NCBI GenBank assembly: GCA_951813565.1
Contig: OX638351.1
Span: forward strand, 5,344,001-5,408,000
Direction of reading: 5' to 3'
Source of the DNA: an uncultured Poribacteria bacterium
Lineage (GTDB): Bacteria > Poribacteria > WGA-4E > WGA-3G
Length of the DNA stretch: 64,000 nucleotides
Part shown: positions 8,914 to 40,457 of the stretch, in pieces
Layout: each line of letters starts with the position of its first letter
Numbering within the stretch: the first letter of the stretch is position 1
Position numbers and translations under genes: made by a program
Notes under the pieces: generated by a model
Database searches by the model: none
Seen by the model: the letters and a program-made list of their open reading frames with translations, nothing else
What the model was told of the DNA's origin: nothing

Positions 8914-9188
8914 CATTTGTGCATCTGATACACCTTTCGCCCCTCTGGGGCTTGGTAAACACAGACATCAGCTGCTATACACCTTTCGCCTCTCCGAGGC
9001 TTTGACAAATCGCATATTAGCACCCGCCAAATGCCAAAAAGCGCACTTGGCGTTGATTCCGGTGCGGAAGATGTCCAGAATACACGTGCTAAAAGAAACC
9101 AAGCACCAGCGGTGCGAAAGTGTATGGCCTAAATTTGGAATTATGAATCCTTCAATAAAAGACATGTTCTTAAATTGACGCCTATGGG
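8888..9188. mobile_element. MITE with perfect 18-bp terminal inverted repeats enclosing REP-like units
   Basis: CCCATAGGCGTCAATTTA (8888-8905) / TAAATTGACGCCTATGGG (9171-9188); internal TACACCTTTCGC-hairpin units in both orientations. Confidence 0.75.
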
Positions 9189-9347
9189 TTTCGCAACCTC
9201 TACCGGCTGAATGCCACACGCGCATTCAGCGTTGATTTGGACCTACAGATGGTTTATATGGAAATGTGAAAAATATAACAGAAAAACCGAAAACTAAATA
9301 ACCCTGCGCGTTTTGCCTCTCTACTCGATTTTTTCTGCAAGGACAGA

Positions 9348-9602
9348 TTGGGCAATTCGATCTCCAGAGACATTGTTCAAAACGACCTTGAAACGGGATA
9401 TCATCGTAACCCAACGGAGAATTTAGAATTTTTCACAGATGCATATCTTCACCGTCCCGATGAACTCCGCTCCGAATTGGTTGAAAGTTATTGGGCAGAC
9501 CCTGACCAACGCGCCATTGTTTTGGATTTCATTCGGAAGGTTGAATCAGACCCTTCAATACTCGGCATGAGTGCGCGTATCTTGGCGATAGGCACGAAGT
9601 GA
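9348..9602 (+). pseudogene. C-terminal remnant of a probable class I SAM-dependent methyltransferase
   Basis: DLETGYHRNP...FFTDAYLHRPDELRSEL...ESDPSILGMSARILAIG resembles methyltransferase C-termini; no N-terminal SAM motif, upstream is repeat DNA. Confidence 0.5.
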
Positions 9603-9725
9603 TACAAATCGTTAGTGCCTTCTTATCTGAATCCACACTTACCACCCGTGTGCTCCTTTGCAGATACGTCAGGTGTTAGTTCTGTTGCCCTCTATTTGTA
9701 AATTCGTCTTGATTAAGCAACGAAT

Positions 9726-10213
9726 GGGTGTGTAAAGTTTTTGTAGAAATCCGCCCTACAGTGGAAAACGCCGCGTAATCATTGCAAATTGAACCTATAT
9801 AAACGACTTGTGCCAGTTAACATTTTGTTTTATTGGTTTTCACATATATTTGCATTTGTGCTATAAACATATCGTCCCTACCAAATCAACGCCAAATGCG
9901 CCAAATCAAGAAATCAACGGTATGAATCATGGCGAATGCCAAAAGCGCATTCGTCTTTAGTCATTCACCGGGTATGAATGCCTTTTGGCATTCCCCGTAT
10001 GGCATTTGGCGGGACTAAAGAGTGCTCGTCCAATCATTTTCTATAAACATATCGTCCCTACCAAATCAACGCCAAATGCGATTATGGCATTTGGCGGGAC
10101 TGAAGAACATATAAATATATGATAATGACTTACGAACATTTTCTTTTGTGAAATAAAGTTCTACAAACGGTTATTTAGCACAACTCGTTATATAACCAAA
10201 TATTTACACATCC
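9726..10213. mobile_element. Non-autonomous element with ISKra4-like ends
   Basis: Left GGGTGTGTAAAGTTTT and right TATAACCAAATATTTACACATCC match the ISKra4 end at 15446-15468; flanks GCAACGAAT / GCAACAAAC (7/9). Confidence 0.7.
9861..10105. repeat. Tandem REP-like units CTATAAACATATCGTCCCTAC...GGGACT, each interrupted by CCAAATCAAC-hairpin cassettes
   Basis: Direct repeat 9861-9900 = 10041-10080; first copy holds further nested cassettes. Confidence 0.85.
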
Positions 10214-10229
10214 GCAACAAACTTAAGAT

Positions 10230-10258
10230 TTGACACTGCTATCAGTTTCCGGTATAAT
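10230..10258 (+). promoter_or_regulatory. Consensus sigma70 promoter for the R-M operon
   Basis: TTGACA-N17-TATAAT. Confidence 0.75.
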
Positions 10259-10346
10259 AAACTGTAAAACAGTTTAGATTGTTAGGTTCGTTGTTTTCAT
10301 ATTGTGTCTGCTTCAATGCAGATTCTGAAGGGACAAAGTTGAACAG

Positions 10347-11360
10347 ATGAATTTTCACAAAATGCGAAACATAGACCTGAGAAAAGAACTCAAAAAACGA
10401 GGTTTAAAAGGTTATTCCTCGTTAAAGAAGGCTCTATTAATTGAGTATCTTTCAACAGGAATCCATCCGCTGAAAAACACACAAATATCTCCAGCGATTG
10501 CAGAGAGCGAAATTCACGATCCTTCTTCTGAAGGTATAGAATATTCACCAACTATTTTAGGAGGAACAACCGAAAAACTTCCTGTTAATCAAATCCTTTC
10601 AGGCGACTGCTTAAAAATTCTCTCTTCTTTTCCAGATGGAGTCTTTGATTGTTGTATTACCGATCCGCCTTTTAATATGTCGAAAAAGAAAGGGTTAGGA
10701 TGGGCATTTAGTTCGCATGTCACAATGCAGGAACAGTGGGATATTTTTTCAAAGGACGACTATTTTCAATTCACGGCAAATTGGATTAAGGAAGTTCTGA
10801 GAGTACTGAAGACGAACGGAAATTTGTTTATTTTTGGATCTTTTCACTGTATCTTTACAATTGGTTTCATTCTTCAAAATATGTTTGACAGGAGGATTAT
10901 CTCTCAAATTGTTTGGTATAAACCTAATGCGCAGCCTAATATTACCTGTCGAATGTTCACCGAGTCTACTGAATTCATCATTTGGGCTGTTAATAATGAA
11001 AGCAAAAAAGCAAAAAACTGGACGTTCAATTATGAAACAATGAAGGCGATGAACAGTGGTAAGCAGATGCGAAACATGTGGGAAATTCCGCTTACCCCAA
11101 GATCAGAACGGAAATTTGGCAAACACCCTTCTCAAAAACCTGTAGCAGTTGTCAATCGAATTATGTTGGCAGGAACTAATGAAGGCGATCTTGTTCTTGA
11201 CCCATTTTCAGGATCTGGGACTACAGCAGTCGTTGCCGAGCAACATAACCGTAAATGGATAATGATTGAGAAAGACGAAACATATAACCAAATTGCGCAA
11301 ATGCGCCTTGATGAGTTGTCTAATAGGTTATTTGAGGATGACTCAAAAAATAGTTGGTGA
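10347..11360 (+). CDS. Beta-class N6-adenine/N4-cytosine DNA methyltransferase with N-terminal helix-extension-helix (Rho_N/SAP-like) module
   Basis: ITDPPF (motif IV) precedes HPSQKP and LDPFSGSGTT (motif I); N-term DLRKELKKRGLKGYSSLKKALLIEYL. Confidence 0.92.
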   Translation: MNFHKMRNIDLRKELKKRGLKGYSSLKKALLIEYLSTGIHPLKNTQISPAIAESEIHDPSSEGIEYSPTILGGTTEKLPVNQILSGDCLKILSSFPDGVFDCCITDPPFNMSKKKGLGWAFSSHVTMQEQWDIFSKDDYFQFTANWIKEVLRVLKTNGNLFIFGSFHCIFTIGFILQNMFDRRIISQIVWYKPNAQPNITCRMFTESTEFIIWAVNNESKKAKNWTFNYETMKAMNSGKQMRNMWEIPLTPRSERKFGKHPSQKPVAVVNRIMLAGTNEGDLVLDPFSGSGTTAVVAEQHNRKWIMIEKDETYNQIAQMRLDELSNRLFEDDSKNSW

Positions 11361-11370
11361 TAGGTATAGC

Positions 11371-11991
11371 ATGGAAAGACGAGAAGCAATCCAGAAATTA
11401 TCAACTATTGAGGGTGAGGATCTTCGAAATCTTGCCGAAAAGTATGAGGTTACAGTCCACAAAGGCAAAAAAATTAATAAAGGTTGGGCGGGGCAGGTAC
11501 TTGAAAGACATTTAGGTCTACCAATCAATTCATCACGATCTCCTAACTTCGGATCTTGGGAACTAAAAACAATTCCCTTAAAATATTTGAAAAGTGGCAA
11601 GTTGACGATTAAAGAAACAATGGCAGTAACAATGATTGATCCATATAATGTTGAACGTACCGATTTTGAAGATAGTCATTTGCTAATCAAATTAAGACGA
11701 ATGATTGTAGCTGCGAGAATTTGGGAAAGTCAAAAAGAGGAAAGATCCATTTTACACCGTGTAACGACCTTTGATTTAGATGACATTGAAGTCTACAATC
11801 AAGTAAAAGCAGATTATAACCTAGTTAGAGAGACAATTCATACTAAGGGTTTTTCTGCTCTTACAGGTAAAATGGGTGTGTACATTCAACCAAGAACCAA
11901 AGGACGTGGGCATGGATCTACCTCAAGAGCGTTTTATGCAAGGAAATCTTTCCTGAAATTCACTATAAAAAGCGAAATTAAATTCCTATGA
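11371..11991 (+). CDS. MutH/Sau3AI/MvaI-BcnI-like restriction endonuclease
   Basis: NKGWAGQVLERHLGL...SPNFGSWELKT, IQPRTKG, RAFYARK; directly after the MTase. Confidence 0.85.
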   Translation: MERREAIQKLSTIEGEDLRNLAEKYEVTVHKGKKINKGWAGQVLERHLGLPINSSRSPNFGSWELKTIPLKYLKSGKLTIKETMAVTMIDPYNVERTDFEDSHLLIKLRRMIVAARIWESQKEERSILHRVTTFDLDDIEVYNQVKADYNLVRETIHTKGFSALTGKMGVYIQPRTKGRGHGSTSRAFYARKSFLKFTIKSEIKFL

Positions 11992-12102
11992 AAGTCATGG
12001 ACACTATCGCTTAATACCTCTTTGAAAGTAGTTCGCAGGTTGAATTTATTAAGTGCGAATCGAAAACTGAGATAAAGGCAAGTAAATTATGGAGAAAGTG
12101 AA

Positions 12103-13155
12103 ATGGAGGAACTAAAAGAACTTCGCGTATCAAATGATGCCATGAACGATCCGGAAGAATTGCGCGCCCGGATGTCGGAAGCGGGGTATCTTTTCTTCAA
12201 GAAACTGCAAGACCCTGATAAACTTTGGGCATTGCGGCGAGAGATGCTAACGACAATGCAAGAAGGTGGTTGGCTCGTAGCAGGTACTGATCCGATGGAT
12301 GGCATCGCTGATATTTCTACACAGTGTACCGAAGGTGATCCTGAATACACAGATGTATACCATGAGGTGTATAAGTTAGAGGTGTTTCACCGTTCTGGTC
12401 ACTGGGATGAAGTCGTTGATATGGTAGAGAAAATTATCGGTAGAGAGGCGCTGCCCCATCCGCAGAAGATTGCGCGGCTCTGGTATCCGAAGTATACCGC
12501 TCACACGACACCGATACATCAAGATTTCGTTCACTTCCAAGGCAATTTTCAGACCTACACATGTTGGGCACCCGTTGGTGATTGCCCGATAGAATTGGGA
12601 GGCTTAGCGGTTCTACCCGGTTCACATAAAGTTAATAAGGTCATGGAGCATCACTTTTCACTTGGGGCTGGTGGTCTGTGTGTTCATACTGATGAACTGT
12701 CGGGTGAATGGCATTCCACAAACTATGAAATAGGCGACACATTGATTTTTCCTGCCTTGACTATCCACAAAGCATTGCCGAATTTGACTGAGGACCGGCT
12801 GCGTGTGTCACTTGACAACCGCTATCAGGCAGTTGATGACCCAATAGCAGAGCACATGCTTGAGCCGCACCTAAACATCTTCAATTCGCTGCAGTGGGAT
12901 GATGTTTATCGCAATTGGGAATCTGACAAACTCAAATACTACTGGAAAGATTATGATCTCACCGTTATACCGAGAGATTTCAGTTACGGTAACAAAGGGT
13001 TTGAGGAAGCGTTGGAATTAGCGAGAGAGGGCGATGATCGCGCAGTGTATCAGTTAAACCGAATAATCAAAAGGGATCCGACTGCTGATTTGGCGAAGCG
13101 AGCATCTGCTGTCTTACAAGAAGCAAATATTGAAGTATCTGTTGCTCAATCTTAG
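12103..13155 (+). CDS. Phytanoyl-CoA dioxygenase (PhyH) family protein
   Basis: TPIHQD, LAVLPGSHK, TIHKALPN, RVSLDNRY. Confidence 0.9.
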   Translation: MEELKELRVSNDAMNDPEELRARMSEAGYLFFKKLQDPDKLWALRREMLTTMQEGGWLVAGTDPMDGIADISTQCTEGDPEYTDVYHEVYKLEVFHRSGHWDEVVDMVEKIIGREALPHPQKIARLWYPKYTAHTTPIHQDFVHFQGNFQTYTCWAPVGDCPIELGGLAVLPGSHKVNKVMEHHFSLGAGGLCVHTDELSGEWHSTNYEIGDTLIFPALTIHKALPNLTEDRLRVSLDNRYQAVDDPIAEHMLEPHLNIFNSLQWDDVYRNWESDKLKYYWKDYDLTVIPRDFSYGNKGFEEALELAREGDDRAVYQLNRIIKRDPTADLAKRASAVLQEANIEVSVAQS

Positions 13156-13359
13156 CGTTGTAAAATCAAAGTTTATTTTTCTATTATGGATAAACACTAA
13201 ACAATCAACACTTGTGATTCAAATTACAAATAAACACCCCATGATTATCTGGTGCTAAACTAAAATACGTTGAACTTATCATCAGTGATATTTTCTTCAA
13301 CCGTAATTTACGTTTAGTGCCAGATTTTTTTAATACTAAAATATAAAGGAGGATTGAAA

Positions 13360-13463
13360 ATGACACACTTTGCTCCATTTCGGATGGCTTTGTTTAGTTG
13401 CATCGTCTTATTGCTGCTTATGAGTCTAAGCGCACATTCTCAGACGATAGAAGCTAAAAAATA
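13360..13463 (+). pseudogene. 5' stub of a secreted-protein gene truncated by IS1595
   Basis: AAGGAGG RBS then MTHFAPFRMALFSCIVLLLLMSLSAHSQTIEAKK (signal peptide) runs into the IS left end; remainder absent on the other side. Confidence 0.7.
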
Positions 13464-14871
13464 CGCAATAAGTAGTTTTGGACTTGCAACAAAATTTTAA
13501 AAATCGCTCTAAATCCTTGTGTAGACTACATTTTTCGATTGTTTTAATTGTGAAAATATGATACAATTTAGATAAGAAATTAGAGGGCTGTTAACCCCCT
13601 AATTGAACACAAAAAAGCGAGTTGCTTTTCTGGCATTCTGTCTTATCTAGTTATTGTATCAGAAACCTGTCAGAAAAAGCAACTCCTAAAAAGGAGTTTT
13701 CTGATGGATTTGTTGAAAGTGATGGAACGATTCCCTGATCAAGAGAGTTGTATTGAACATTTAGAGAGTATTCGGTGGAAGGGTAAACCGAAGTGTCCAC
13801 ATTGTGATTGCCCAAACGCTGCAAGACGAACAGAAACGGAATTGGGACGCATCGGACGCTTGCAATGCCACGATTGCACTGCTACTTTCAAGGTTACTTG
13901 TGGCACGGTGTTTCACGGGACAAAGATAGCACTTCAGAAGTGGTTTTTGGCTATCTCGTTGATGATGAATGCTAAAAAGAGCCTTTCAAGTCATCAGTTG
14001 GCAAGAGATTTGGACTTGGATCAAAAGACTGCGTGGCGTATGGGAACATGTATCCGTGCTGAAATGGCTAAAGATAATATCCTCTTACAAGGTATCATAG
14101 AGGCTGACGAAACTTATGTCGGGGGTAAACCTCGCAAAGCGAACAAAAAAGAGGACAGGGATCCTGCTAAGCGTGGGCGTGGCACTGATAAAGATGCTAT
14201 CATCGGAGCGATTGAACGCGGTGGGAAAGTTGTGGCAAGACTCGCAAAAGATTTGACGGGACGGACTATCTTAAATTTTATTCGCGAAGTTGTTAAAGTA
14301 GATAAATCGCAGTTGATGACTGATGAGTATAAGGCTTATCTCACACTCGGTAAAGAGATGAAGCACCATATCATTGATCATCAAGAACAATTTGTTGACG
14401 GTGATGTCCATACCAATACGATTGAAGGCTTCTGGTCACTTCTCAAACGTGCTTGGTATGGAAGTCATCACCACTATTGGACTGAATACACGCCCCTATA
14501 TGTCGCAGAGGCGTGCTATAAATACAACTATAGGAGCATTGAGAGCATTTTTGATAAGTTTGTCAATGAGAGTATGAGATGAAGACTCACTCAACGATGG
14601 CAGAAGAACTTAAAGAATAAGGTCTTGACAAGCTGGACCACACTCATATCACAACGGCAAAACGATTAGAAGAATTGTCTGCCGTTGCAAAGTATCTATC
14701 AAGCGCGCTCAACTTTTATACCGATGTGAGTTGGAGGGGCAGAAGTTCTCGCAGATTAGAGTTAGAAATTAGTCTTCGCCGTTTAGTGCTTTTCCGAATT
14801 CTCATACCCTATTAAGTATAAATTTCCATAACGCTTAAGGGCTTTTTGCAAGTCCAAAACTACTTATTGCG
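13464..14871 (+). mobile_element. IS1595-family insertion sequence, copy 2 (complete, 1408 bp)
   Basis: Perfect 26-bp terminal IRs at 13464-13489 and 14846-14871; no target-site duplication visible. Confidence 0.95.
13704..14582 (+). CDS. IS1595-family DDE transposase
   Basis: Protein identical to 77..955. Confidence 0.95.
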   Translation: MDLLKVMERFPDQESCIEHLESIRWKGKPKCPHCDCPNAARRTETELGRIGRLQCHDCTATFKVTCGTVFHGTKIALQKWFLAISLMMNAKKSLSSHQLARDLDLDQKTAWRMGTCIRAEMAKDNILLQGIIEADETYVGGKPRKANKKEDRDPAKRGRGTDKDAIIGAIERGGKVVARLAKDLTGRTILNFIREVVKVDKSQLMTDEYKAYLTLGKEMKHHIIDHQEQFVDGDVHTNTIEGFWSLLKRAWYGSHHHYWTEYTPLYVAEACYKYNYRSIESIFDKFVNESMR

Positions 14872-15468
14872 AAAAGTTATTTGCGTTAGCAACGCAAAGT
14901 GGCATTTACCGAGACGATATAGATACCCAGGATGTTGTGTTTCTTGGGGATGGTGCTGCGTGGATATGGAACTTAGCCGATGAATACTTTCCGAATGCCA
15001 TTGAGATTGTGGATTACATGCATGCGAAATCCCATTTATATGAAGTGGCAAAACAGGCATTTGGGGAACATCAGACAACAACGATTGAAAAGTGGGTAGA
15101 GGCAACAGACTTTTTTCTTTATGAGGGAGACACAGCAGAACTCGTTTTACGCATTCGGGGTTTAGGTATAGAAAATCCAGATGTTGTGAATATCTTAGAC
15201 AGGGAAGCAGGCTATTTCGAAAAGCACGCTGAACGCATGCAATATAAAATGTTTAGAGAAAAAGGGTATCAAATCGGGAGTGGCGTGATTGAGAGTGCCT
15301 GCAAACATGTCGTGGGGCAAGGTGTAAACAAGCTGCTATGAGGTGGCAGGAGAAAGGTATCAATCCAGTGCTTTCCGCACGATGTTTGATAAAAAATGGA
15401 GCGTGGGACAGATATTGGAATGAACTCAAACAGGCAGCATGAACTTATAACCAAAACTTTACACACCC
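14872..15468 (+). pseudogene. Truncated, frameshifted ISKra4-family transposase with its right end
   Basis: VVFLGDGAAWIWN, IVDYMHA, IGSGVIESACK; frameshift near 15320 then RCKQAAMRW...WDRYW stop 15442; end ...CTTTACACACCC at 15468. Confidence 0.85.
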
Positions 15469-15591
15469 GCTTTACAGAAACAATTTGCGATGCGATGTGT
15501 GTTGTGCTATACTTTTCTATGAACCCAAAAATAGAAAATAAAGTACTACAGACCACCTCCTAAATGCGATTTTGACGGAGTTTGGATATAC

Positions 15592-16064
15592 GTGTGCAAG
15601 CCGAGACCTTTAAAAATATATCTTGATACCTGTTGTTTGAGTAGGCGTTTTGACGATCAGACGCAAACTCGGATTCACCAAGAAACTGAAGCAATCAGGC
15701 AGATACTTGACTATTTTCAAGATGGACGTTGGCTTGGATATCCAGCGATGTTTTAGTTGATGAAATTGAAAACAATCCTAATGAAACAAAACGGATTCAA
15801 ATCAAAAGGTGGCTAATTCATGTTGCCCAAGATATTTCTGTTGAAACGAGTGAAATGTCAAGAGGCAGACAGTTAGAAACATTGACGTTTCAAGTAATGG
15901 ATGCTTTACATCTTGCTTGTGCTGAGAGCGGATCGGCAGATGTTTTGTTAACAACAGATGACAGGTTACTCAATAAGGCGAGAAGTGTGCAGACTCAACT
16001 TAACATTGAAGTTGATAATCCTCAGGAATGGTTACAGAAGGTGAGAAAAAATGAACATACTTGA
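15592..16064 (+). pseudogene. PIN-domain toxin with a one-base frameshift near 15730
   Basis: KIYLDTCCLSRRFDDQTQTRIHQETEAI in one frame; WISSDVL...MDALHLACAE...LLTTDDRL in the other. Confidence 0.8.
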
Positions 16065-17133: not shown

Positions 17134-17189
17134 ATCTATATTGCTGAAGCACCATTTATGCTTCAATATATATCTAAGGATTAAATACA

Positions 17190-17807
17190 ATGAATTACGT
17201 AATTGAGGAAAGACTATATCAGTTTAAAGAAGATTTAAACGCTATGTCACCAATTCAAATCGTGAGAAAACACATTATTTCTGGCGAATGTTGTATTTTG
17301 TCTCAGCATGAATATTTTGATTTGCGGTCAGAGATTGCTGATCACTTTGGGGTACACCCCAACGAGGTTTTGGTAGTGGGATCAGCTAAACTCGGTTTTA
17401 GTGTTGCGCCTAAAAAACGATATCTTCCTTTTGGTGATAAATCAGATATTGATGTAGCGTTAGTATCTTCAAAGTTATTTGACCAAGTTTGTGAGGAGAT
17501 ATATACTTATAAGCAAGAAGCAGGCGACTGGAAAAAATACAACGAATATCTTGATTACCTTTTTCATGGGTGGATAAGACCAGATATGTTACCTAGGTCA
17601 CCAGTATTTCCATTCGGCAAAAAATGGTGGGATTTTTTCCTAGGATTAACAAGCAATCAAAGGTATGGAGATTACAAGATTCGCGGCGCGGTATATAAAT
17701 CTTATTATTTTTTAGAGAACTATCAAGAAGTCTGTGTACAGCAATGCATGGATGAAAAAAGTATAAATAACTTGGAGGAAAACAATGCAGATAGCAGCAG
17801 GTACTAG
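17190..17807 (+). CDS. Polymerase-beta-superfamily nucleotidyltransferase-like protein
   Basis: VVGSAKLGFS...SDIDVALVS (hGS..DxD). Confidence 0.7.
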   Translation: MNYVIEERLYQFKEDLNAMSPIQIVRKHIISGECCILSQHEYFDLRSEIADHFGVHPNEVLVVGSAKLGFSVAPKKRYLPFGDKSDIDVALVSSKLFDQVCEEIYTYKQEAGDWKKYNEYLDYLFHGWIRPDMLPRSPVFPFGKKWWDFFLGLTSNQRYGDYKIRGAVYKSYYFLENYQEVCVQQCMDEKSINNLEENNADSSRY

Positions 17808-18810: not shown

Positions 18811-18868
18811 AGAGAAAAGTAGTTGGCAAAGTTACGTTTTATACTGAAGGAAGAGTAACAGATAAGAA

Positions 18869-19765: not shown

Positions 19766-19784
19766 CTGAAAATTAAATCACTTA

Positions 19785-19815: not shown

Positions 19816-19859
19816 AATCTACTGAAAAATTGTATGGTTCGATAAATAAGGAGTGAGAA

Positions 19860-21026: not shown

Positions 21027-21067
21027 CTTACCAAATTCCATTTTTGGTTTTTTAACCTTACTAATAA

Positions 21068-24328: not shown

Positions 24329-25547
24329 ATGAACTTTGACGTTCAAGTTGGGTAAAATCTAAATGGGTCTACAAGCGTTAGCTAATAGCCCATCGCCTTT
24401 CAGTCCTACATAACGGAGTAAGTCATCCGAACCGGTGGCAAATTGATCCAGAAATCTATTCACCCGGGCTCTGAACGCCTCCCACTGGCTCGCAAAACGA
24501 TGCATCTTAAACACATCAACCCGCAGCCATCTCCATAACTTCTCAATCGGGTTCAACCACGGCGCATAAGTCGGTAGCCAAACAGGCGCAATCTGTGGCA
24601 ACTCTGATAACGCATCAAGCACATCCGGATGTTTGTGGATCGACCAGTTGTCTTGAACAACATAAAGCGTTTCTGCTCGCGGATATACTTGTGTCAACTT
24701 CTGATACATTTCAATCACTTTGGCACGCCCTACAATGTAGTTATCAAGATAGCATACCTGTCCCGTCAACGCATTCAGCGCACCAATGATCCGCCATTGC
24801 TGATTATTTCCATCACAACCTGCCACCGGAATACTTCCCGGAGGTGCTTGTATCCAAACCCGTCCAGCTTCAGACCAGCGAGAATACCCCATCTCATCAA
24901 GAAATACCAGTTCTTGTTTACCACGACTGCGAACGATCTGCTGTAAACAGGAACATAGATGTGATACTTTCGCCGCATACTCAGGATCCGGACTATACTG
25001 CTGCACGTGACCTGAGCGAAGACGCAAACCACAACGAGACAGCACTCTATATACACCACTCAGCGTGTAACCTTCTAACCAATCAAGACTCGCACGCAGC
25101 GTCCGAAGCGTCCAACGACTTGGGATAGGCGCATCAGTAGAAACGCCTTTCGCTTTATCCACAACTTCATCTGGGGCTTGGCGCACATGTTCTAATAGTT
25201 CTTCTTTTTTTTTGAAAATCGCTGTCTTGCTCCGCCATGCTGCCGCTGGATTAACCCATCAAAACCTTCTTCGTCATATATATTCAACCATCTGTAAATG
25301 GTATCAGGTTTGCGGCGTTTGAGTAACCCATAGGTCGAAACCCAGTGTGCCGAAACACCTTCGGCTATTTTCAACAACGCAGCAGCTTTTTCTCTGACAT
25401 CAGGACGGTCGTGATGATCTCGATATTCAATCAGTTCTTGTTCTTCTTCTTCTGTCCGAATGAGTTCTCTTCGTTTTGCCAGGGTATACTCCTTTTATGT
25501 TGGATTATACCATCATAACATTACCCCGTTTGATTGTCAAAGTTCAT
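24329..25547 (-). mobile_element. IS630-family insertion sequence (1219 bp)
   Basis: IRs ATGAACTTTGAC / GTCAAAGTTCAT, TA duplicated within a CCTAGG target. Confidence 0.92.
24359..25482 (-). CDS. IS630 transposase, two frames joined by a probable -1 frameshift at A9G (25204-25213)
   Basis: HTH ORF 25192-25482 (CTG start after AAGGAG); catalytic ORF with FLDE, QDNWSIH, LPTYAPWLNPIEKLW. Confidence 0.88.
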
Positions 25548-25675
25548 TAGGCAGGGGGTTTGACGGGGAGTGCTAGATTAATGTGTTGATCACAAAACCG
25601 CCAATTAAAGATTTGAAATATTTGATTGGATTTACCTAAAGTTGAAATTAGCAGAAAATCTGAAGCAATTGTTTA

Positions 25676-25785
25676 TAGTAAACTTCACAATTACCTTTAC
25701 ATTGGCGAGGTTAGGAAACCTCGCCAGCGCATGCGTGTGGGAATTGCTGTTCATTGAAATGTGAACATATTATTGGATTTTACTA
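25676..25785 (-). mobile_element. 110-bp MITE, inverted copy of 8335-8444
   Basis: One mismatch seen by eye versus 8335-8444; TA on both sides. Confidence 0.9.
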
Positions 25786-25910
25786 TAAATGCGTGGTCTG
25801 TGGTTACTAATAACGCTTGTAAACGAAGTAAAATAAAAAACGTAGAAAGTTCTAACTCAGTTTACATCTTATACATAATATCACTTTTGAGACAAACTGT
25901 CAATTTATGT

Positions 25911-26401
25911 GGGTGTATAATATTATGTCACTTAGGTGCAATTTGCAAAGAGGCCGTCGCGTTTTCTACGGCAGGGCCAAATCAACACAGCATGCACGTA
26001 TGGCATGCCAGATGACTTGGCAAGATTATAGAATTTCCAAGATTGGTATTTACTCAGCTAAAGGTTTTTCTCAAGAAAGATTTAAACATTCATCAAACAG
26101 AAACGCTTGGAGAATAAAATAGCATTCATAACATAAATAATTCCGATGTTAAATATGTGCTTAAAGGTAGTCCGCACACGCCGTGGGTTTCCGTCCACAA
26201 GTTCAAAGAGGCGCAGCATGCCACACGGGGAATGCCATAAGGCATTCGGACCGTTGATTTGGCGCATGCTGCGTTGATTTGGCAATGAATTGCGCGACTA
26301 CAAACGCATTTCTATAAATCAAGCGGCACCTGGCGTCTGTCCTTGTCTGTGTTGATGCGCCAATTATTTATGCACACCCCTCAATTATTTATGCACACTC
26401 C
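25911..26401. repeat. Decayed MITE-like region with REP dyad and nested hairpin cassettes
   Basis: GGGTGTAT... left end, tandem CAATTATTTATGCACAC(C/T)CC at 26361-26401, cassettes at 25977-26011 and 26212-26282. Confidence 0.55.
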
Positions 26402-32840: not shown

Positions 32841-33113
32841 ATGTGCGGTTATCAACACCGCTAAATGCCTTATGTGCATTTGGCGTTGATTTGAACTTTA
32901 CAGTTTGGGTCTCACAAAACGGACCTAGAAAACTCTCCTACAAGAGAAATTCAGCAATTTTCTTCTTAAGTTGACACCTAAAGTTTCAATCTACTCTACA
33001 CGTGATTTATACATAAACCGATATGATAATTTCTCACATAGAAATGGTATAATACCACGATTTTAAACTAAAAGTTAATTATTGTGTTTTAGGCTTCACA
33101 TTTTGAGAAGGTT

Positions 33114-34199
33114 TTGAATATCCGACAATCTTATATTACGTTATTCAAGAGTCTGATTCTTCAGATACGACAACTGAGCCGTAACCTTTTGCCGTCGCTG
33201 CTTGCTATCTGCGGCTTTTTTCTTTTATGCGGGATTGTGTTGATCGTGAGAGAACAGAACCCATGGGAATTTTATGCGACAATCTTTATCAGTGGGTTCT
33301 CCAGTTTTGATGAAGTCGGCAGTGTGTTGTTTAATTCAACACCTCTTATTTTCACGGGACTTGCCGTTGCTATTGCCTATAAAGGTGGACTGTTTAATAT
33401 TGGTTGCGAAGGACAACTCTATGTTGCTGCGTTTGCAGCTACGTGGGTAGGAATGCATCTGAACCTTCCTTCTGTTATGTTAGTGCCTCTCTGCATAGGT
33501 GCTGCAATGATTGCGGGGAGTATCTGGGGAGCGGTTCCTGGTTACTTAAAAGCGAAATTCGGGGCGCACGAAGTTATCAACACAATTATGATGAACTTCA
33601 TTGCGTTTGCCCTAACAAATTTCCTTGTTACGTCTGTTTATAGAGAGCCTGGACAGATGATTCCACAAACACCTCAGATCCATGAAGGGGCACGTTTACC
33701 GCGTTTAGCAGGCGTGTTACTTTTCCTACCACAGAGCAATCTTTTAAACGCCAGTTTCTTGCTTGCATGTGCTTGCGTTGTTATCTGTTACATCTTTTTA
33801 AAGTATACTCGGTGGGGATATGAACTCCGCTTAGTAGGGAACGCACCAGAAGTTGCTGAATATGGAGGGATAAACCCTCGTATAGTGATTGTGTGGGTAA
33901 TGGCACTCAGTGGCGCTATCGCTGGGTTATCGGGTGTCGCTGATGTAATGGGATATCGGTACAGGTACTTAGATAGTTTCTCATCTGGCTGGGGCTTCAC
34001 TGGAATTGCTGTTGCGCTTTTGGGTAGAAATCACCCGTTTGGTGTTTTTGCAGCAGCACTGTTATTTGGTTTACTAAATAAGGTTGCTTTGGATATTGAA
34101 CTCACCTTAGAAGTGCCGCGCGGTCTATTCCTTGCTGGTCAGGGATTACTCATTATCGGGTTGGTCTGTATGGAAGGTATTTCAAAAAGAAATAAATGA
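33114..34199 (+). CDS. Sugar/nucleoside ABC transporter permease
   Basis: TPLIFTGLAVA, LFNIGCEGQ, HEVINTIMMNF, GFTGIAVALLGRNHP. Confidence 0.9.
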   Translation: MNIRQSYITLFKSLILQIRQLSRNLLPSLLAICGFFLLCGIVLIVREQNPWEFYATIFISGFSSFDEVGSVLFNSTPLIFTGLAVAIAYKGGLFNIGCEGQLYVAAFAATWVGMHLNLPSVMLVPLCIGAAMIAGSIWGAVPGYLKAKFGAHEVINTIMMNFIAFALTNFLVTSVYREPGQMIPQTPQIHEGARLPRLAGVLLFLPQSNLLNASFLLACACVVICYIFLKYTRWGYELRLVGNAPEVAEYGGINPRIVIVWVMALSGAIAGLSGVADVMGYRYRYLDSFSSGWGFTGIAVALLGRNHPFGVFAAALLFGLLNKVALDIELTLEVPRGLFLAGQGLLIIGLVCMEGISKRNK

Positions 34200-35041
34200 T
34201 GATTTTTGACTTAATTCCAAGCACATTACGGATGACAACACCGCTTGGTTTTGCTGCGCTCGGTGGAATTTACTCTGAACGTTCTGGAGTAATTAATATC
34301 GCTTTAGAAGGGATGATGCTGATCGGAGCGTATGGTTATGTGGTTGGTGCACATGCATCAGGTTCCGCATGGGTTGGATTATCTGTTGGCATTTGTTTAG
34401 GAATTGTCTTATCAATTTTGCATGCTGTTGCCACAATTACTTTTCACGCTGAGCAAATTGTCACAGGTATTGCGATTAACATTCTGGCATTAGGTATTAC
34501 AAAGTATCTCGTACCAACCACAGAATGGGTGCCGGGATTACCTCAGTTGACGCTGCCACTTATTGGCTCTTATAGCATTCTTGTATATCTGGTGCCTATA
34601 TTGATGGTATCAAACCATATTTTGCTTTTCAAAACACCATGGGGTTTGCGGTTGCGTGCTGCGGGCGAATCTACTGAAGCGCTTAAAACGCTCAGCTTAA
34701 GTCGCGCAAAGTGGCAATATCTTGGTGTAATTTTGAGCGGCGTCTTTGCAGGAGTTGGTGGATGTTTTCTCATATCCGATGTGCATTATTTTACTGAAGG
34801 TATTATTGGTGGACGAGGATATGTTGCACTTGCAGCAGTTATCTTCGGAAATTGGCGTCCCCTCTATGGTGTTGCTGCATGCCTACTCTTCGGATTCGCT
34901 GACTCTTTAGGGCTTTCAAGTCAATGGCAAATTCCCGATCAACTTTTAAAAAGCTTCCCGTATATATTAACAATGATTATACTCGCTGGACTTGTCGGTA
35001 GATCGCGTCCCCCAGCAGCTTTGGGCAAGATGGAATCCTAA
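34196..35041 (+). CDS. Sugar/nucleoside ABC transporter permease
   Basis: SERSGVINIALEG, GLRLRAAGE, GRGYVALAAVIFGNW; ATGA overlap. Confidence 0.9.
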   Translation: MMIFDLIPSTLRMTTPLGFAALGGIYSERSGVINIALEGMMLIGAYGYVVGAHASGSAWVGLSVGICLGIVLSILHAVATITFHAEQIVTGIAINILALGITKYLVPTTEWVPGLPQLTLPLIGSYSILVYLVPILMVSNHILLFKTPWGLRLRAAGESTEALKTLSLSRAKWQYLGVILSGVFAGVGGCFLISDVHYFTEGIIGGRGYVALAAVIFGNWRPLYGVAACLLFGFADSLGLSSQWQIPDQLLKSFPYILTMIILAGLVGRSRPPAALGKMES

Positions 35042-35060
35042 ACGATTTGTTGTGAAACTC

Positions 35061-37436
35061 CTAACTTCCTTCATCTGTCAGTTCATAATAACCGGCATGT
35101 CTGTTATAGTATCCATAAGATTTGGCGTGTTTTGGATTTATCATGTTACAAAGCACCCCGATACCCTTCGCTGGTAATACCTCCTTAAGATGTTTTATCC
35201 CTGTCAATACATCAAACCGTTTGGTTTTCGTTATGTCAAACACATAAACGACAGCATCAACGACAGTTGCTAAGATAACTGGGTCCGCGACTGCACGTAC
35301 AGGTGGGGAATCAATTACTATAACATCATACTCATTTTTTGCCAGTTCCAACCATTGGGTCATCATATCTGAATTTAATAACTCAATCGGATTCGGTGGG
35401 ACTGTTCCACCCGGCACGAGATGTAAATTGGGAATACCGGTTTGCCTGACTGTCGACTGAAGAACATCATAAGCGTTTTCGGCATTAAGACGAATAAGTG
35501 CTTCGCTCAATCCGGGTTTACGCGGGTCACTGTGCGTAACTACTGAAAGATTGTCAAGCGTCTCAACCTCACCTTGGGACGTTATCTGGAGTAGTTGTTC
35601 TGTGGGGAAAAATGTGTGTTGCGACGGTCTACGCATATCTGCATCTATTAACAGGACTTTGTTTCCTTTCTGCGCGAGTGTAGCTGCGAGATTAGAAGAA
35701 ACGGTACTTTTCCCTTCTCCGCGGGTGGAACTTGTGACAAGTACAGTTTTCAGCGCGCTGCTAAGGTTAAGAAACGGTAGTTTGGCTACAAGCACTCTAA
35801 ATGCTTCCGCTGTTCTGGAGTTAGGTGCATCATTTACTATGAGCGGAATACGGTAAGCACTCCGTTTTTTCATAGATGGAATTACACCAAGAAAACTTGG
35901 GGGTTCAGGCAGCGAATCTAATTGACGGACAGAATCCTCTAATCGTAAATAGGTGTCTTTAAAATAATTTTTGGCAACTGCAAACGTAAATCCGAGTAGA
36001 CAACCAAGCATACCACCTAAAGCGAGATTTAGTTTCATGCGCGGTTTGATAGGCTCTTCTGAAAGGCGGGCATGATCTAGGACCTGAAGACTATCTGTGC
36101 GCGCTTCAGCGACAATTTGTGACTCCCGTATTTTCGCCTCTAAAGCAACGACCTGTGCTGTGTAAATTTCAACATCGCGCTTAAAACGAAACATCTTCAA
36201 CTGTTCATCTGACCAACCCCCAAGCTTTTTGATTTCTTGCTTGATTTTGGCAGAAACCTCTACTTTTTGCTTCTCAAGACTCTTAATAGCAGCTTGTGCC
36301 TCATTGACCTTTTCAGAAACCACTTGGTGTAACGGGTTAAAAGAGGATGTTGTACTGATAATTTCTTTTTCCTCTGTGGTAAGACGTGCTTTTGTTTCTT
36401 TTATTTTCTCATCAAGAGAGGTAATTTCAGGATGGGTTACATCCCCGTATTTTCCGATAAGCGCCTTTCGTTCAATTTCATATTCGTTCAAGTTGTCATT
36501 CAGTTTGGAATATGAAGGGTTTTTTGTTCTCGTTTCTGATATAAGATTTTCTTCTATTTTACTAAGTTCATCCTCATAAGCTATAAGCCTTAATTCAGCA
36601 TCAACCAATTGACTCGTCAATTGATTTTCATTCAACTGTAGTGAGACAATAAGTTGCGCTTGTGTTCCTCCTTCTGTATTTAAGGTTAACTCAGGATTTG
36701 CTTGCTGAAAATCAAAGAGCTGCTTCTCCGAATTTTTTAAGTTCTGTTTTGCTTCCTCCAACATTGCTTGTGGAAGTGGTTTTTCCCACCATCGCATATT
36801 TTCCGTTTTCTCTGCATCAACAACTTGGATGAGTACAACGGCAATTCTGTTACACAAGAGCTGCGCAGACTCTGGGTTCTGTTGTTTCACAGTAAGGGTA
36901 ATAACGTTGCCATCCTGAGACTCTTCAACCTTTAACTTTTCATCAATAAGCGTTTTGATGAAATAGTCTTTCCACTCAATATCAGTGAGTTCACCTTGTT
37001 CAGTAACGGTTGGATCTAATTCAATATTCAGAAGATTCGCCAACCACTTCACTGTGTCACCTCGGTGAATAGGTTGTGGTTTCAACAGTTCTTCATCTAT
37101 AAGTTGACTGACTGTTGGGGCAATCACTAAGTCGCGGGACTGCATCAGGGTCGCGTAAGTCCCTAAAGATGCGCCTTTGAGGAATCCCGACAGTGGAAAT
37201 TGTGAGAGTAATGAAGAGGCGGATTGGTCATCAAGGATACGAAGTGTTGTTTCGGATTGATAAACTGGGGACGTGAAATCGGTTACGAGGAATGCGCCAA
37301 AAACACAAAGTAAAAAGATGGTAAGAACACTCCATTTATTCCGGAAAAGTATCCAAAAATAGTCTGATAATCGAATTTCTGTAATTTGTTCAAGTTGTCG
37401 ATCAGTTGTATCTGGCATATTTAACCTCATGCTCAT
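35061..37436 (-). CDS. wzc: Polysaccharide co-polymerase / tyrosine autokinase (Wzc/GumC)
   Basis: Wzz N-term, coiled coil, GEGKST, IDADMRRP, IDSPP, C-terminal Tyr cluster SYGYY...GYY. Confidence 0.88.
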   Translation of the reverse strand: MSMRLNMPDTTDRQLEQITEIRLSDYFWILFRNKWSVLTIFLLCVFGAFLVTDFTSPVYQSETTLRILDDQSASSLLSQFPLSGFLKGASLGTYATLMQSRDLVIAPTVSQLIDEELLKPQPIHRGDTVKWLANLLNIELDPTVTEQGELTDIEWKDYFIKTLIDEKLKVEESQDGNVITLTVKQQNPESAQLLCNRIAVVLIQVVDAEKTENMRWWEKPLPQAMLEEAKQNLKNSEKQLFDFQQANPELTLNTEGGTQAQLIVSLQLNENQLTSQLVDAELRLIAYEDELSKIEENLISETRTKNPSYSKLNDNLNEYEIERKALIGKYGDVTHPEITSLDEKIKETKARLTTEEKEIISTTSSFNPLHQVVSEKVNEAQAAIKSLEKQKVEVSAKIKQEIKKLGGWSDEQLKMFRFKRDVEIYTAQVVALEAKIRESQIVAEARTDSLQVLDHARLSEEPIKPRMKLNLALGGMLGCLLGFTFAVAKNYFKDTYLRLEDSVRQLDSLPEPPSFLGVIPSMKKRSAYRIPLIVNDAPNSRTAEAFRVLVAKLPFLNLSSALKTVLVTSSTRGEGKSTVSSNLAATLAQKGNKVLLIDADMRRPSQHTFFPTEQLLQITSQGEVETLDNLSVVTHSDPRKPGLSEALIRLNAENAYDVLQSTVRQTGIPNLHLVPGGTVPPNPIELLNSDMMTQWLELAKNEYDVIVIDSPPVRAVADPVILATVVDAVVYVFDITKTKRFDVLTGIKHLKEVLPAKGIGVLCNMINPKHAKSYGYYNRHAGYYELTDEGS

Positions 37437-37526
37437 TTTCGCGAACGCTCGCTGTACATAAAAAGAGATAGCAAGGTAAAAATAAAAGGGATGTCTTCCG
37501 CTATTTTCTTCCTTAGTCTTAGATTT

Positions 37527-38708
37527 TTACCTGTATCTGAGCCAAACATTCACGACCAAGCTTGTCAGCGAAGCAGCAAAACTCAAAACTCGCCAATCAA
37601 TTCGTGTCCGTTCCAAAATTCGGAGTTGATCATTTGGGTAAAGATAAACTTCTGACTGAACCAAATTAAAGTTAAGTTCTTCTTGTGTTCCATTTGCCCG
37701 TGTAAGGATACATTTTTTGGTGTTGGCTTTTTCCTCGTTTAACCCGCCTGCCATTGCCACAGCATCTCTTAAAAGTGTTGGTTCAGTAATTACATATTGA
37801 GCAGGCTTATCGACAGCTCCGACAACGCTAATTTTTGCTTCAGCCAAAGGAACAAATAAAACATCCCCTGGTTTCAACATTGCGCTAACATTTTCCGAAG
37901 TGAGATCAACAGGCGTATTTTCGGTACCGGTAATAATTTCCGCGTTTTTTAAATCTGCGAAGTCTGCTCTGGAGCCTCCTGCAAGTTTCAACGCATGGTT
38001 TGCAGGAATCTGTTCATTCGTTATCGGGAAGAGGCCAGGCGAAACCACAGCACCTATTACACGAATCCGTCGCTGTTCATAAATAGAAGGAATAATGACA
38101 ATATCATAATCTCTTAAGGGAATATCAACACTATCTGATTCAATGTGTTCTTTAAAATTAATCGTTTTGAATGTCTTGCCATCGCGCCATACGGTAATTT
38201 TGGTGAGATCAGCCAATTCATAGTTGATTCCTGCCGCTGCCAAAGCATGCATTAAATAAACCTGTCCGGTTTCAAAAATATGCATGTTTCCTCTTGGTCT
38301 CTGATCGACTGCTCCGAAGACCAGAATGTGTCGTTTGGGTTGCATTAATGTGACAAACACACGGGCACTCGGAAGTTTCTTTGCAAAGGCCTGCTGCATC
38401 TGCACCTGAAGTTCAGAAACCGTTAAACCTGTTACCTTAATAAGTCCAATGAGTGGATAGGAGATATAGCCATCCGATTGAACAGGAACTGAGACACGGT
38501 CTTTGGTATATTCAGGGTACCCGTCAACAGTAACAACAATACTGTCCCCAACTTGCAATTTATAGGTAGATGTTTCTGGGGTTATTTCGCTATTTGTAGA
38601 ATTATACTCGGCTGGAGATTCTTCAGCAAAAATTTCTGTGGAAAAACTGACTTGTCCCAATATTATCAAAAGAAAAAATAGAAAATGTAAGCGTAAAAAC
38701 GTGTTCAT
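37527..38708 (-). CDS. Polysaccharide export protein with SLBB domains (Wza-like)
   Basis: YKLQVGDSI, DGYISYPLIG, three V.GAV..P SLBB repeats; start uncertain. Confidence 0.85.
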   Translation of the reverse strand: MNTFLRLHFLFFLLIILGQVSFSTEIFAEESPAEYNSTNSEITPETSTYKLQVGDSIVVTVDGYPEYTKDRVSVPVQSDGYISYPLIGLIKVTGLTVSELQVQMQQAFAKKLPSARVFVTLMQPKRHILVFGAVDQRPRGNMHIFETGQVYLMHALAAAGINYELADLTKITVWRDGKTFKTINFKEHIESDSVDIPLRDYDIVIIPSIYEQRRIRVIGAVVSPGLFPITNEQIPANHALKLAGGSRADFADLKNAEIITGTENTPVDLTSENVSAMLKPGDVLFVPLAEAKISVVGAVDKPAQYVITEPTLLRDAVAMAGGLNEEKANTKKCILTRANGTQEELNFNLVQSEVYLYPNDQLRILERTRIDWRVLSFAASLTSLVVNVWLRYR

Positions 38709-39172
38709 CAAATTTACATCGACCTTTTCGGTTGTGTGCTTAGAACACACCTTGAAAAACTATCACGAATGTTTTCAGAGATAGGTTTTTTTCTAAAGTA
38801 CTAAGGATGTATCTCGTAAATTGCCATCTTTAGTATATTTTGTAAATGTTATGTGTTTACATATTTTGAAGTAATTTTCTAAGGTATTTTAGCAGGAATA
38901 TGGCAAAAACACAAGTGAAAATAGGTGAACGACTAATACAAACAACCTTGATTAAACCTCAATTGATAAAATAGTTGAGATTTATAATACCTTGTTTTGA
39001 AATTGGTTCTAACAAACTTTTTCTTATAAAAAAATGGCATTTCATTAAACTTCGATCATCTTGTTTGTTGTAATCCGTTTTGTTTTTCTTCAAGAAATTT
39101 CGGAAATTGCAAACAAAACTTAAGTAAGAATGTTTGTTGCTTTAACCTACTAAGTTATGCTAATATAATCGT

Positions 39173-40228
39173 GTGAACTTAAAAAATGTTTTTACAAAAC
39201 TTCAAGAAAAACGGGTGATGGTAATTGGAGATATCATCGTGGATGAATACATCTGGGGTGATGTGAACCGAATTTCACCAGAGGCTCCAGTTCCCGTGTT
39301 CGAGATGACCAAAGAAAGAACCGGCTGTGGAGGTGCTGCTAACGTAGCACAAAATATCATCAGTTTGGGAGGTAAAGCAAAATTAGTCGGTGTCATCGGG
39401 AAAGACAGAGATGGTGAAAAACTGATCCAGATGCTAAATCTTATGGGTGTCGGCACTGCTGACATCTGTATGGATGTTCAGCGTCCCACGAGCAAGAAAA
39501 CCCGTGTGATTGTCCTCTCTGATACAGCAGATTTCTCACATCTAAACGTGGACAACACTGATGACCTATCTTTACACCAGGGACACCATCTGCTTCGGAT
39601 TGATAGGGAGTCTAAACAGGAAATCACTGCTATGCTGAGGGAACGTCTGTTGAGTGCTGTTATTTCTCATATAGCCGAGGTTGATGCGATTATTTTTTCT
39701 GATTACGATAAAGGTGTTGTTAGTGCAGAACTTATCAAAGCGGTGGTGATGCGTGCAGAGTCTTACGACATACCGATAATAGTTGATCCGAAGCGTAATA
39801 ATTTTTGGAAATATGAAGGTGTAACTGCCCTAACACCGAACCATAAAGAAGCAGGGGAGGCTGTACAGGAAGAAATTACTGATGTGTCACACCTAATTAC
39901 TGTTGGCGAAAAGATATTAGATCGATTATCGTTGCGATCATTGTTGATTACGCGTGAGGAAGAAGGAATGTCACTATTTCATCGGGATTCCGATGGTACT
40001 TTGCAAGTAGAACACCTACCACCCTATTCGAGAAAAGTGACAGATGTAACAGGTGCAGGAGATACTGTGGCTGCTGTTTTCACGCTTGCTCTTGCAGCAC
40101 AAATTGATTGCCGTAGTGCTGCGAAACTATCAAGTCTTGCTGGCGGAATTGTAGTTGGAAAGATGGGTTGCGCAACTGCCACACCAGAAGAACTGCATCA
40201 GGCTATTGAGACATTGCCTCAAACATAA
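39173..40228 (+). CDS. rfaE1: D-glycero-beta-D-manno-heptose-7-phosphate kinase
   Basis: RISPEAPVPV, GGAANVA, SDYDKG, VDPK, DVTGAGDT. Confidence 0.92.
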   Translation: MNLKNVFTKLQEKRVMVIGDIIVDEYIWGDVNRISPEAPVPVFEMTKERTGCGGAANVAQNIISLGGKAKLVGVIGKDRDGEKLIQMLNLMGVGTADICMDVQRPTSKKTRVIVLSDTADFSHLNVDNTDDLSLHQGHHLLRIDRESKQEITAMLRERLLSAVISHIAEVDAIIFSDYDKGVVSAELIKAVVMRAESYDIPIIVDPKRNNFWKYEGVTALTPNHKEAGEAVQEEITDVSHLITVGEKILDRLSLRSLLITREEEGMSLFHRDSDGTLQVEHLPPYSRKVTDVTGAGDTVAAVFTLALAAQIDCRSAAKLSSLAGGIVVGKMGCATATPEELHQAIETLPQT

Positions 40229-40264
40229 TTACAATCTCAATCCTTTAATTTCTCAATCTAACTA

Positions 40265-40457
40265 CAACCTATCTCATAAATTACTTGTAGGGCGAGGTCC
40301 CGGGAATGCCATAAGGCATTCGGACCGTTGATTTGGTGCCTCGCCATGTCTCAGGATCGAAACAACGGGCGGGCACAGGGACCCGCCCCTACAATACAAG
40401 TGAACTTCAGTGCAAATAACGAGTAAAACCCAAAAATCGGATTTATGAGATACACTC
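40265..40457. mobile_element. TA-flanked MITE-like element enclosing a REP dyad with an inserted hairpin cassette
   Basis: IR TATCTCATAAAT (40270-40281) / ATTTATGAGATA (40441-40452); GTAGGGCGAGG...CCTCGCC and GGGCGGG...CCCGCCCCTAC inside. Confidence 0.65.

Follow-up and report, generated by a model that had tools for sequence, protein, structure and literature searches.

The region analyzed here raises a simple question: what are the short hairpin units that recur along it, and how did they come to lie where they do? The region is a window of 64,000 nucleotides, starting at position 5,344,001 of the 5.43-Mb, one-contig genome of an uncultured Poribacteria bacterium that is a sponge symbiont (OX638351.1). 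Eight sites in the window carry between them 11–12 units laid out as a 9-bp stem, a 7-nt loop and then C-GTTGATT. Repeated units of a stem-loop plus a tail had been proposed at these eight sites in an initial annotation of the DNA, and direct reading of the sequence confirms them: the coordinates were right to within 1–2 nt, and the stem core ATGC..GCAT, the C and GTTGATT form an anatomy common to all eight. The reading that we favor, to which we give a probability of about 0.45, is that the units are a family of likely non-autonomous mobile DNA whose folded single strand would be cut and rejoined by an enzyme acting in trans.

The units are abundant well beyond the window. Exact copies of GTTGATTTGG, the full tail as first annotated, number 562 in the genome against 12.4 expected from composition, and seven are in the window (at 9231+, 9881-, 10061-, 25977-, 26253+, 26273+ and 40327+). 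With up to one mismatch allowed, the window contains 15 matches, a number reached by none of 100 shuffled sequences (6.8 ± 2.2). A looser signature, GCAT-N5-7-GTTGATT, gives 709 matches genome-wide (338 forward, 371 reverse) compared with nine for the reversed-pattern control, and we put the genome total at ~700 units of 32–36 bases. The hairpin is specific to the GTTGATT 7-mer: it precedes 338 of 2358 GTTGATT sites with a score of at least 9, whereas each of six control 7-mers has 8–14 such sites among 682–2358. Folded as single-stranded DNA, five of seven window units leave the tail unpaired and form a stem of 7–9 bp (z -2.9 to -3.8, -6.3 to -9.5 kcal/mol), and two decayed window units give z values of -1.0 and -1.5.

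The 709 matches fall into 397 clusters, of which 238 contain a single unit. Both orientations are found together in 63 clusters, so that inverted doublets are not the dominant organization, and double-tailed palindromic forms (AATCAAC-hairpin-GTTGATT) are rare, with nine matches on the searched strand. Arrays run head-to-tail with a 34–35-nt period and reach nine identical 35-nt units. Open reading frames (ORFs) of at least 150 codons make up 79% of the genome, though only 18 of the 709 units lie within them, leaving 97% outside. Divergent, convergent and tandem spacers are all occupied approximately in proportion to their length, there is no preference for gene ends or for one spacer type, and units co-oriented with the flanking genes are in slight excess over those in the opposite orientation (241 versus 189).

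Evidence that the unit is a discrete block comes from a deletion test, in which segments reaching from 11–45 nt upstream to 4–15 nt downstream of each GTTGATT site were removed and the joined 12+12-mer was sought elsewhere in the genome. Deletion restores a genomic 24-mer at 362 of the 2358 sites, among them the window units at 10062–10095 and 26227–26261, and so extends to the genome the clean restoration of the host that had been noticed in the window. The restoring deletions are predominantly 34 nt (145 sites) or 35 nt (154 sites) long, together 299 of the 362, followed by 36 nt (23), 28 nt (22) and 20 nt (19). Once tandem-array cases are set aside 214 restoring sites remain. The restoring sites represent 63 distinct hosts when 8+8 nt are compared, and 40 distinct 6+6-nt hosts without arrays. 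The restored hosts have no duplicated bases, in agreement with the proposed insertion without target duplication into repetitive extragenic palindromic (REP) hairpins and into the units' own copies, and the combination of terminal inverted repeat and target duplication that marks a classical miniature inverted-repeat transposable element (MITE) is not seen. The same 32-nt core has 15 or more unrelated host sequences, and in one case it stands in unique DNA. The unit is thus a discrete block, the removal of which restores the host and leaves no target duplication.

Of the 40 hosts, 34 have C at -1 and 27 have G at +1, and positions -2 and -3 are mostly C. The insertion motif is only 1–3 nt (C at -1, mostly CCC), with no duplication and with variable junctions. 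A G follows most units, whose last bases are ..GTTGATTTG, and this leaves the register ambiguous by one base (C^G or CG^). The host GAAAACCC^CTCCCAC has 30 empty copies, and the tested variants with a junction G have none; because these empty copies have no G, the G at the junction belongs to the unit. The annotated insertion 3' of CG was accordingly right in that a C precedes the unit (34 of 40 hosts) and off by one base in its register, since the cut falls after C. At a second abundant host that settles the register, ACACC^TATGGG, with 73 empty copies, the insert is C+G..GTTGATT with nothing after the 7-mer. The bases that follow GTTGATT track the right flank of the host, being TG before G (443 of 709), CA or CG before CTCCCAC, CC before CTACGGGA or GGTGCGG, and TC before TTGATTTGG; no link between these variable bases and the left flank was found. 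Because they go with the host, what stays constant is a core of 32 nt (G, 8-nt arm, 6–8-nt loop, 8-nt arm, C, GTTGATT) to which 0–3 junction bases are added, and GTTGATTTGG is merely the commonest form of a tail that had been taken as fixed: only GTTGATT is constant, and the next 2–3 bases follow the host. Folding of the empty hosts places the insertion site at a stem edge. In GGGGTT..AACCCC this is the 3' foot, in GTCCC..GGGAC the border between 5' arm and loop, in other units the border between loop and 3' arm, and in GCAAT..ATTGC the 5' foot.

Counted from the unit's own G, which moves the earlier boundaries by 1–2 nt, the units of the window and the MITE that carries some of them are as follows (D-type denotes a bulged subtype described below; the parts of the nested stack are as read from the sequence).

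9026–9060, plus strand: unit in a GCACC..GGTGC REP hairpin, where it occupies the loop; arms GCCAA/TTGGC with one mismatch; tail GTTGATT+CC; fold -6.0 kcal/mol, z -1.5.
9206–9239, plus strand: unit with arms GCTGA/TCAGC, between two other repeats; tail GTTGATT+TG; fold -9.3 kcal/mol, z -3.4.
9803–10188, plus strand: MITE of 386 bp with terminal inverted repeat ACGACTTGTGC..GCACAACTCGT and a 7-bp target duplication, TATATAA, at 9796–9802 and 10189–10195.
9882–10010, minus strand: nested stack within the GTCCC..GGGAC hairpin of the 386-bp MITE.
9882–9901 and 9997–10010, minus strand: outer unit of the nested stack.
9902–9909 and ~9970–9996, minus strand: D-type unit in the loop of the outer unit.
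~9910–9969, minus strand: composite of ~60 nt inside the tail of the D-type unit, missing from two MITE copies.
10062–10095, minus strand: unit with arms GCCAA/TTGGC, in the MITE's second hairpin at GTCCC^GTAGGGAC; fold -9.5 kcal/mol, z -3.8.
25976–26010, minus strand: decayed unit with arms GGCATGC/GCATGCT, alone in otherwise unique DNA.
26213–26226 and 26262–26281, plus strand: outer unit with arms GCAGC/GCTGC, at GAGGC^GCAATGAATTGCGC.
26227–26261, plus strand: inner D-type unit in the loop of the outer unit 26213–26281, at CCACAC^GCGCATGC; fold -7.2 kcal/mol, z -2.9.
32860–32893, plus strand: unit with arms GCTAA/TTGGC including a T.G pair, within a ~130-nt repeat; tail GTTGATT+TG and then A (TGA, not TGG).
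40302–40335, plus strand: D-type unit, GGGAATGCC..GGCATTCGGACC, in the loop of a GTAGGGCGAGG..CCTCGCC REP.

The surroundings of these units differ widely. For the unit at 10062–10095 it is a 34-nt deletion (register -25,9 or -24,10) that gives a 24-mer present elsewhere, and removal of the inner unit at 26227–26261 likewise yields a 24-mer found elsewhere in the genome. At 9206–9239 the stretch that is repeated elsewhere runs from 9203/9205 to 9240/9241. A 151-nt query around the unit at 25976–26010 finds 25 other places in the genome, and at these only ~33–34 nt match. The ~130-nt repeat around 32860–32893 has copies of the same length in a relative (G006), and the REP type that hosts the unit at 9026–9060 also flanks a RAYT-like gene, Y1_6 (RAYT, REP-associated tyrosine transposase). 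In five of five relatives examined, the same two genes are separated by spacers of ~4–75 nt and lack between them the whole intergenic cluster at ~40264–40470, which includes the unit at 40302–40335. The REP hosting this last unit is paired, in inverted orientation, with another GTAG-type REP hairpin (~40286–40400), and the pair resembles a REPIN (REP doublet forming a hairpin).

Not every copy need record an insertion of its own. The 386-bp MITE has at least six genomic copies of 81–97% identity, each with its own 7-bp duplication in an alignment of six, and the window units at 9882–10095 are carried within it and copied as a block. The copies at 4,156,668 and 260,066 lack exactly the 60-nt composite, and the copy at 3,670,340 has an extra insert of ~35 nt. 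Both independent insertion and block copying therefore occur, and many present-day copies have spread passively inside larger repeats. That units might be internal parts of a larger MITE, as the initial annotation had allowed, applies to 9882–10095; genome-wide there are 40 distinct hosts and one unit in unique DNA. A unit inserted after CCC restores the target CCC^G, which would explain the head-to-tail arrays of 34–35-nt period that lie next to such hosts; runs of identical units could equally well have come from slippage.

The stem arms of the units vary in sequence whilst remaining complementary, as had been noticed in the window. In a genome-wide census units were chosen only by the conserved ATGC/GCAT core and the tail, and the distal 5+5 arm bases were then read. 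The commonest arm types are GCAGC/GCTGC (113 copies), GCCAA/TTGGC (73), GACAA/TTGGC (49, with one A.G mismatch), ACCGA/TCGGT (23), GATGA/TCAGC (21) and GCTGA/TCAGC (14), and at least four arm types are fully compensated. Across 53 distinct arm pairs 75.8% of positions are paired, compared with 66.5 ± 1.7% in 1000 shuffles (maximum 71.7%). The arms thus covary, the structure being kept through compensatory changes. Read on the strand where the hairpin comes before GTTGATT, 229 distinct units have 99 G.T pairs and 65 A.C pairs, an excess that hints modestly at this strand as the carrier of the structure.

The subtypes also differ in where they are found. For the bulged D-type (GGGGAATGCC..GGCATTC-NNN-CC) the main locations are two loops, CCAYAC^GCGCAT in other units and that of GTAGGGCGGGG-type REPs, and none was seen at the GGGGTT..AACCCC foot; the D-type target pattern overlaps, so that each D unit is counted up to three times and only ratios are meaningful. 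The other types favor the 3' foot of the GGGGTT..AACCCC hairpin, with 185 of 328 non-D units after CCC, 100 after the TTG of a preceding unit, 18 after GGC and 11 after AAC. The hosts GTCCC^GTAGGG, GAGGC^GCAATG and AAAACC(C)^CTCCCA are each occupied by two to four different arm types, which speaks for repeated hits on one kind of site.

The family is confined to a single genus among the genomes compared. The looser signature is present in 24 of 24 genomes of the genus at 32–709 copies (controls 1–13), so that copy number differs ~20-fold between species, and in 16 genomes from three sister families it is at background level (8–27 copies, controls 0–10). With a stricter pattern five other species have 5–208 copies (control 0), show the same arm types together with some of their own, and contain arrays with a 34-nt period. 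The genes around the window are 77–90% identical to those of the nearest species. Read-derived de Bruijn contigs break at all other window units and are informative for 25976–26010 and 32860–32893, both of which are bridged without a gap by contigs of single-copy depth (four runs from four studies, 2016–2025). Because contigs from four studies carry these two units unchanged, the units are not an assembly artefact, as the initial annotation had allowed they might be. Some contig joints skip 34–36 nt (10060>10095, 26225>26262) and were considered as empty alleles; their sides are 18–23 nt long and of multi-copy depth, so that they come from other copies.

How might such a unit move? It lands after C (mostly CCC), usually before G, at the stem edge of another hairpin repeat, and it would be excised and inserted as folded single-stranded DNA. 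Insertion after CCC regenerates CCC^G, and repeated hits would then build head-to-tail arrays. The enzyme would be provided in trans; by analogy only, the most likely class would be the Y1 (HUH) transposases, whether RAYT or IS200/IS605, which would cut at C^G and after GTTGATTNN on one strand. The analogy rests on the absence of target duplication, the hairpin, the short target and a cut 9–10 nt 3' of the stem. A bolder form of this proposal is doubtful but worth stating: the units may form a class of micro-transposon of ~32 nt, in which a hairpin and a 7-nt tag would suffice for excision and for insertion at a stem-edge C^G, the subtypes would choose different targets, and the trans-acting enzyme would be unrelated to the resident RAYT/REP pairs and possibly of a new kind. 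If this is true, no smaller DNA transposon substrate is known, and the unit parasitizes other selfish repeats.

We looked for the mover among the genes of the genome. The window holds no Y1 gene, as the initial annotation had said, the nearest match being at genome position 5,070,893. Listing the Y1/RAYT genes genome-wide and checking their flanks for units, as had been advised, gave ten loci, none of them flanked by units. Four are IS605 copies that have both tnpA and tnpB, and a fifth is another tnpA; of the rest, three are intact RAYT-like genes (genome positions 3,097,970, 5,070,803 and 242,023) and two are pseudogenes. The IS605 TnpA can be set aside as the mover, because the left and right ends of the four to five IS605 copies are unrelated hairpins (CCCCTACCTTTAGGTAGTGGG). 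The RAYT-like genes Y1_6, Y1_8 and Y1_10 are each flanked by their own GTAG-type REP. In the group Y1_8, Y1_9 and Y1_10, two have one unit within ~170 nt upstream and the third has a decayed unit-like stretch; this proximity is not conserved in other genomes, and we treat it as a weak lead and not as support. TnpB elements show no association either, with a unit within 450–500 nt of five of 51 genes. A search beside the units for multi-copy or transposase-like genes gave nothing but ordinary gene families and spurious ORFs made of repeats; 73 ORFs lie between unit clusters. As separate observations, Y1_10 is followed directly by a tandem array of about ten REPs (GTCGCGAGCTGGAG..CTCCTACAGG) at ~40-nt spacing (genome 242496–242900), and the 51 TnpB-type (Cas12f1-like_TNB) matches set beside about five IS605 tnpA genes reveal a large TnpB-only population.

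Several findings weigh against transposition in trans. No enzyme is tied to the units, all ten Y1 loci having other hairpins at their ends or flanks. Homologues of Y1_10 in other genomes have a unit within 1.5 kb at only four of 19 loci, and at varying positions, and the Y1_10 query has no match (E <= 1e-10) in 11 of 40 genomes, three of which are single-contig. Six of these 11 were counted for the signature and carry 32–251 units; the five unit-richest genomes all have a Y1_10 homologue, whilst there are genomes with 154–251 units that lack it. Fixed-end cut-and-paste predicts constant junctions, and the junction bases vary by host (TG, CA, CG, CC or none). Many units are block copies, so that ~700 copies amount to far fewer than 700 events. 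Targeting of the lagging strand predicts a strand bias that the orientations (338 versus 371) do not show, although replichores could not be assigned in this genome. The relatives, at ~80% gene identity, are too diverged for comparison unit by unit, and whole intergenic clusters are present or absent between them; in the contigs of the four samples no filled/empty strain difference was seen at 25976–26010 or 32860–32893.

Some of these same observations suit a reading in which the units have no mobility of their own and are modules of mosaic repeats, comparable to bacterial interspersed mosaic elements (BIMEs), shuffled by slippage, unequal crossing-over and gene conversion and spread together with MITEs and REP clusters. 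The stretch 9882–10095 does ride in the six-copy MITE, 32860–32893 is part of a 130-nt repeat common to another species, arrays reach nine identical 35-nt units, and the junction bases go with the host. We nevertheless consider this reading unlikely, since the 32-nt core recurs in at least 15 unrelated hosts and once in unique DNA, hosts are restored to the base at 214 non-tandem sites, one host site is occupied by different arm types, and gene conversion requires flanking homology, which these hosts lack.

Transposition of a DNA strand must also be set against movement through an RNA copy and reverse transcription, which we judge very improbable. A conserved hairpin with G.T pairs favored on one strand would fit an RNA structure equally, the slight excess of co-oriented units (241 versus 189) points the same way, and the genome encodes two reverse transcriptases. 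One of these, however, adjoins Cas1 and probably serves a CRISPR system, and the other matched only RVT_1, with no second Pfam family at E <= 0.001; neither has units nearby in any pattern, which removes both as candidate movers. There is, moreover, no poly-A or priming signature, and divergent, convergent and tandem spacers are occupied alike. A similarly remote prospect is that the unit is mainly a functional site, for instance a protein-binding motif beside a hairpin that stabilizes transcripts or organizes the nucleoid, with its abundance due to selection. The strict conservation of the 7-mer alongside variable arms, and the persistence of the family and its arm types from species to species within the genus, would be expected of such a site, and AATCAAC contains WATCAA, the core of IHF sites. 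The sequences seen lack, however, the TTR that completes the IHF consensus four bases further on, and copy number varies 20-fold between species, units nest in one another and in other repeats, and they show no preference for gene ends or spacer type. A function would in any case leave the arrival of the copies unexplained.

Amongst known systems, the closest in behavior are probably the small dispersed repeats (SDRs) of Nostoc, the likeness being one of behavior only. SDR1–8 of Nostoc punctiforme and its relatives, reportedly the subject of Elhai et al. 2008 (Genome Res), are said to be hairpins with nested copies and to be confined to a clade, and movement by RNA copy and reverse transcription has reportedly been proposed for these cyanobacterial repeats. 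They share with the units a very small size, a compensated hairpin, nesting in themselves and in other repeats, restriction to one clade and a mover that is not known. They differ in being 21–27 nt long and in occurring in heterocyst-forming cyanobacteria, whereas the units are 32–36 nt, belong to another phylum, have a fixed 7-mer by a variable stem and use REP-type hosts. A passage of PMC3116915 names small dispersed repeats as one class of short interspersed palindromic repeat.

In anatomy the closest parallel would be REP/REPIN sequences with their RAYT. Like the units, those treated in the relevant sections of PMC3116915 are extragenic hairpin repeats of 20–40 nt with a short fixed tag by the stem, hundreds of copies, and clusters and tandem arrays. 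By the account given there, however, the REP tag is GTAG (or CGTC) and lies 5' of the stem, whereas the unit tag is GTTGATT on the 3' side (AATCAAC on the 5' side of the other strand) and there is no GTAG. The units are mostly single or head-to-tail rather than the inverted doublets covered in those sections (PMC3116915), and no RAYT gene is flanked by them. The units do qualify as short, highly repeated, extragenic imperfect palindromes, which is how REPs are recognized, yet they sit inside REPs as parasites.

Insertion sequences (ISs) that prefer REP hairpins as landing sites include IS1397 and ISPpu9/ISPpu10; those are full-length and protein-coding, whereas the unit is 34 nt and non-coding. 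At the right end of IS608 the cut is a short distance 3' of the stem, and the cut of the unit, 9–10 nt 3' of the stem foot, is comparable. A unit is one hairpin, however, whereas in an IS of the IS200/IS605 family the left end and the right end are distinct, and the insertion motif of the family is a fixed tetra- or pentanucleotide 5' of the element. Dependence on a hairpin, a short insertion motif and lack of target duplication are features shared with IS200/IS605 elements such as IS608 and ISDra2, as far as these are described in the pertinent part of PMC2806898. The annotated parallel with ISDra2 is correct as regards that element, for which the same part of PMC2806898 gives TTGAT as the target, outside the element and 5' of its left end; it is superficial as regards the units, where TTGAT is inside the 3' tail and not in the flanking target. 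On the traits tested here the units do not match REP/RAYT members (tag, cognate gene and doublets all differ), IS200/IS605 derivatives (the ends do not match) or MITEs. A literature search found no description of the family among the papers that it listed, and an Rfam scan of the window gave no match other than three tRNAs.

How repeats that are too short to code for anything come to spread has long been asked of REPs and of cyanobacterial SDRs. In the present family hundreds of copies share a clear-cut layout: the core is 32 nt long, the tag is fixed, the arms covary, and the target follows a readable rule, differs by subtype and is regenerated. With dozens of related genomes and a 20-fold range in copy number, the mover should be findable by comparative genomics or by biochemistry with the few resident Y1 proteins, and a minimal hairpin substrate could serve as a tool. 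What our analysis adds is the 32-nt core with host-linked junction bases, the one-base register, the subtype targets, the reading of arrays as regenerated targets, the read support, and the negative tests of Y1, TnpB and reverse-transcriptase genes.

Some further observations concern the surroundings of the units. The three tRNA genes stand in a row at 7502–7782 of the window (Rfam RF00005, 65–73 bits). A ~550-nt repeat family (window 25000–25552) has at least seven copies of ~90% identity in G006, and a ~117-nt family (window 25672–25790, with a copy near 8332–8450) has dozens of copies in G006 and in a second relative, G017. Elsewhere in the genome, at 3988992–3992062, the gene for one reverse transcriptase (465 aa) lies beside that for Cas1 (357 aa), a pairing that suggests a reverse-transcriptase-associated CRISPR adaptation module. 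Cumulative GC skew and gene-strand skew along the chromosome are without a two-arm pattern, with a minimum at ~0.5–0.8 Mb and a maximum at ~4.5–5.05 Mb.

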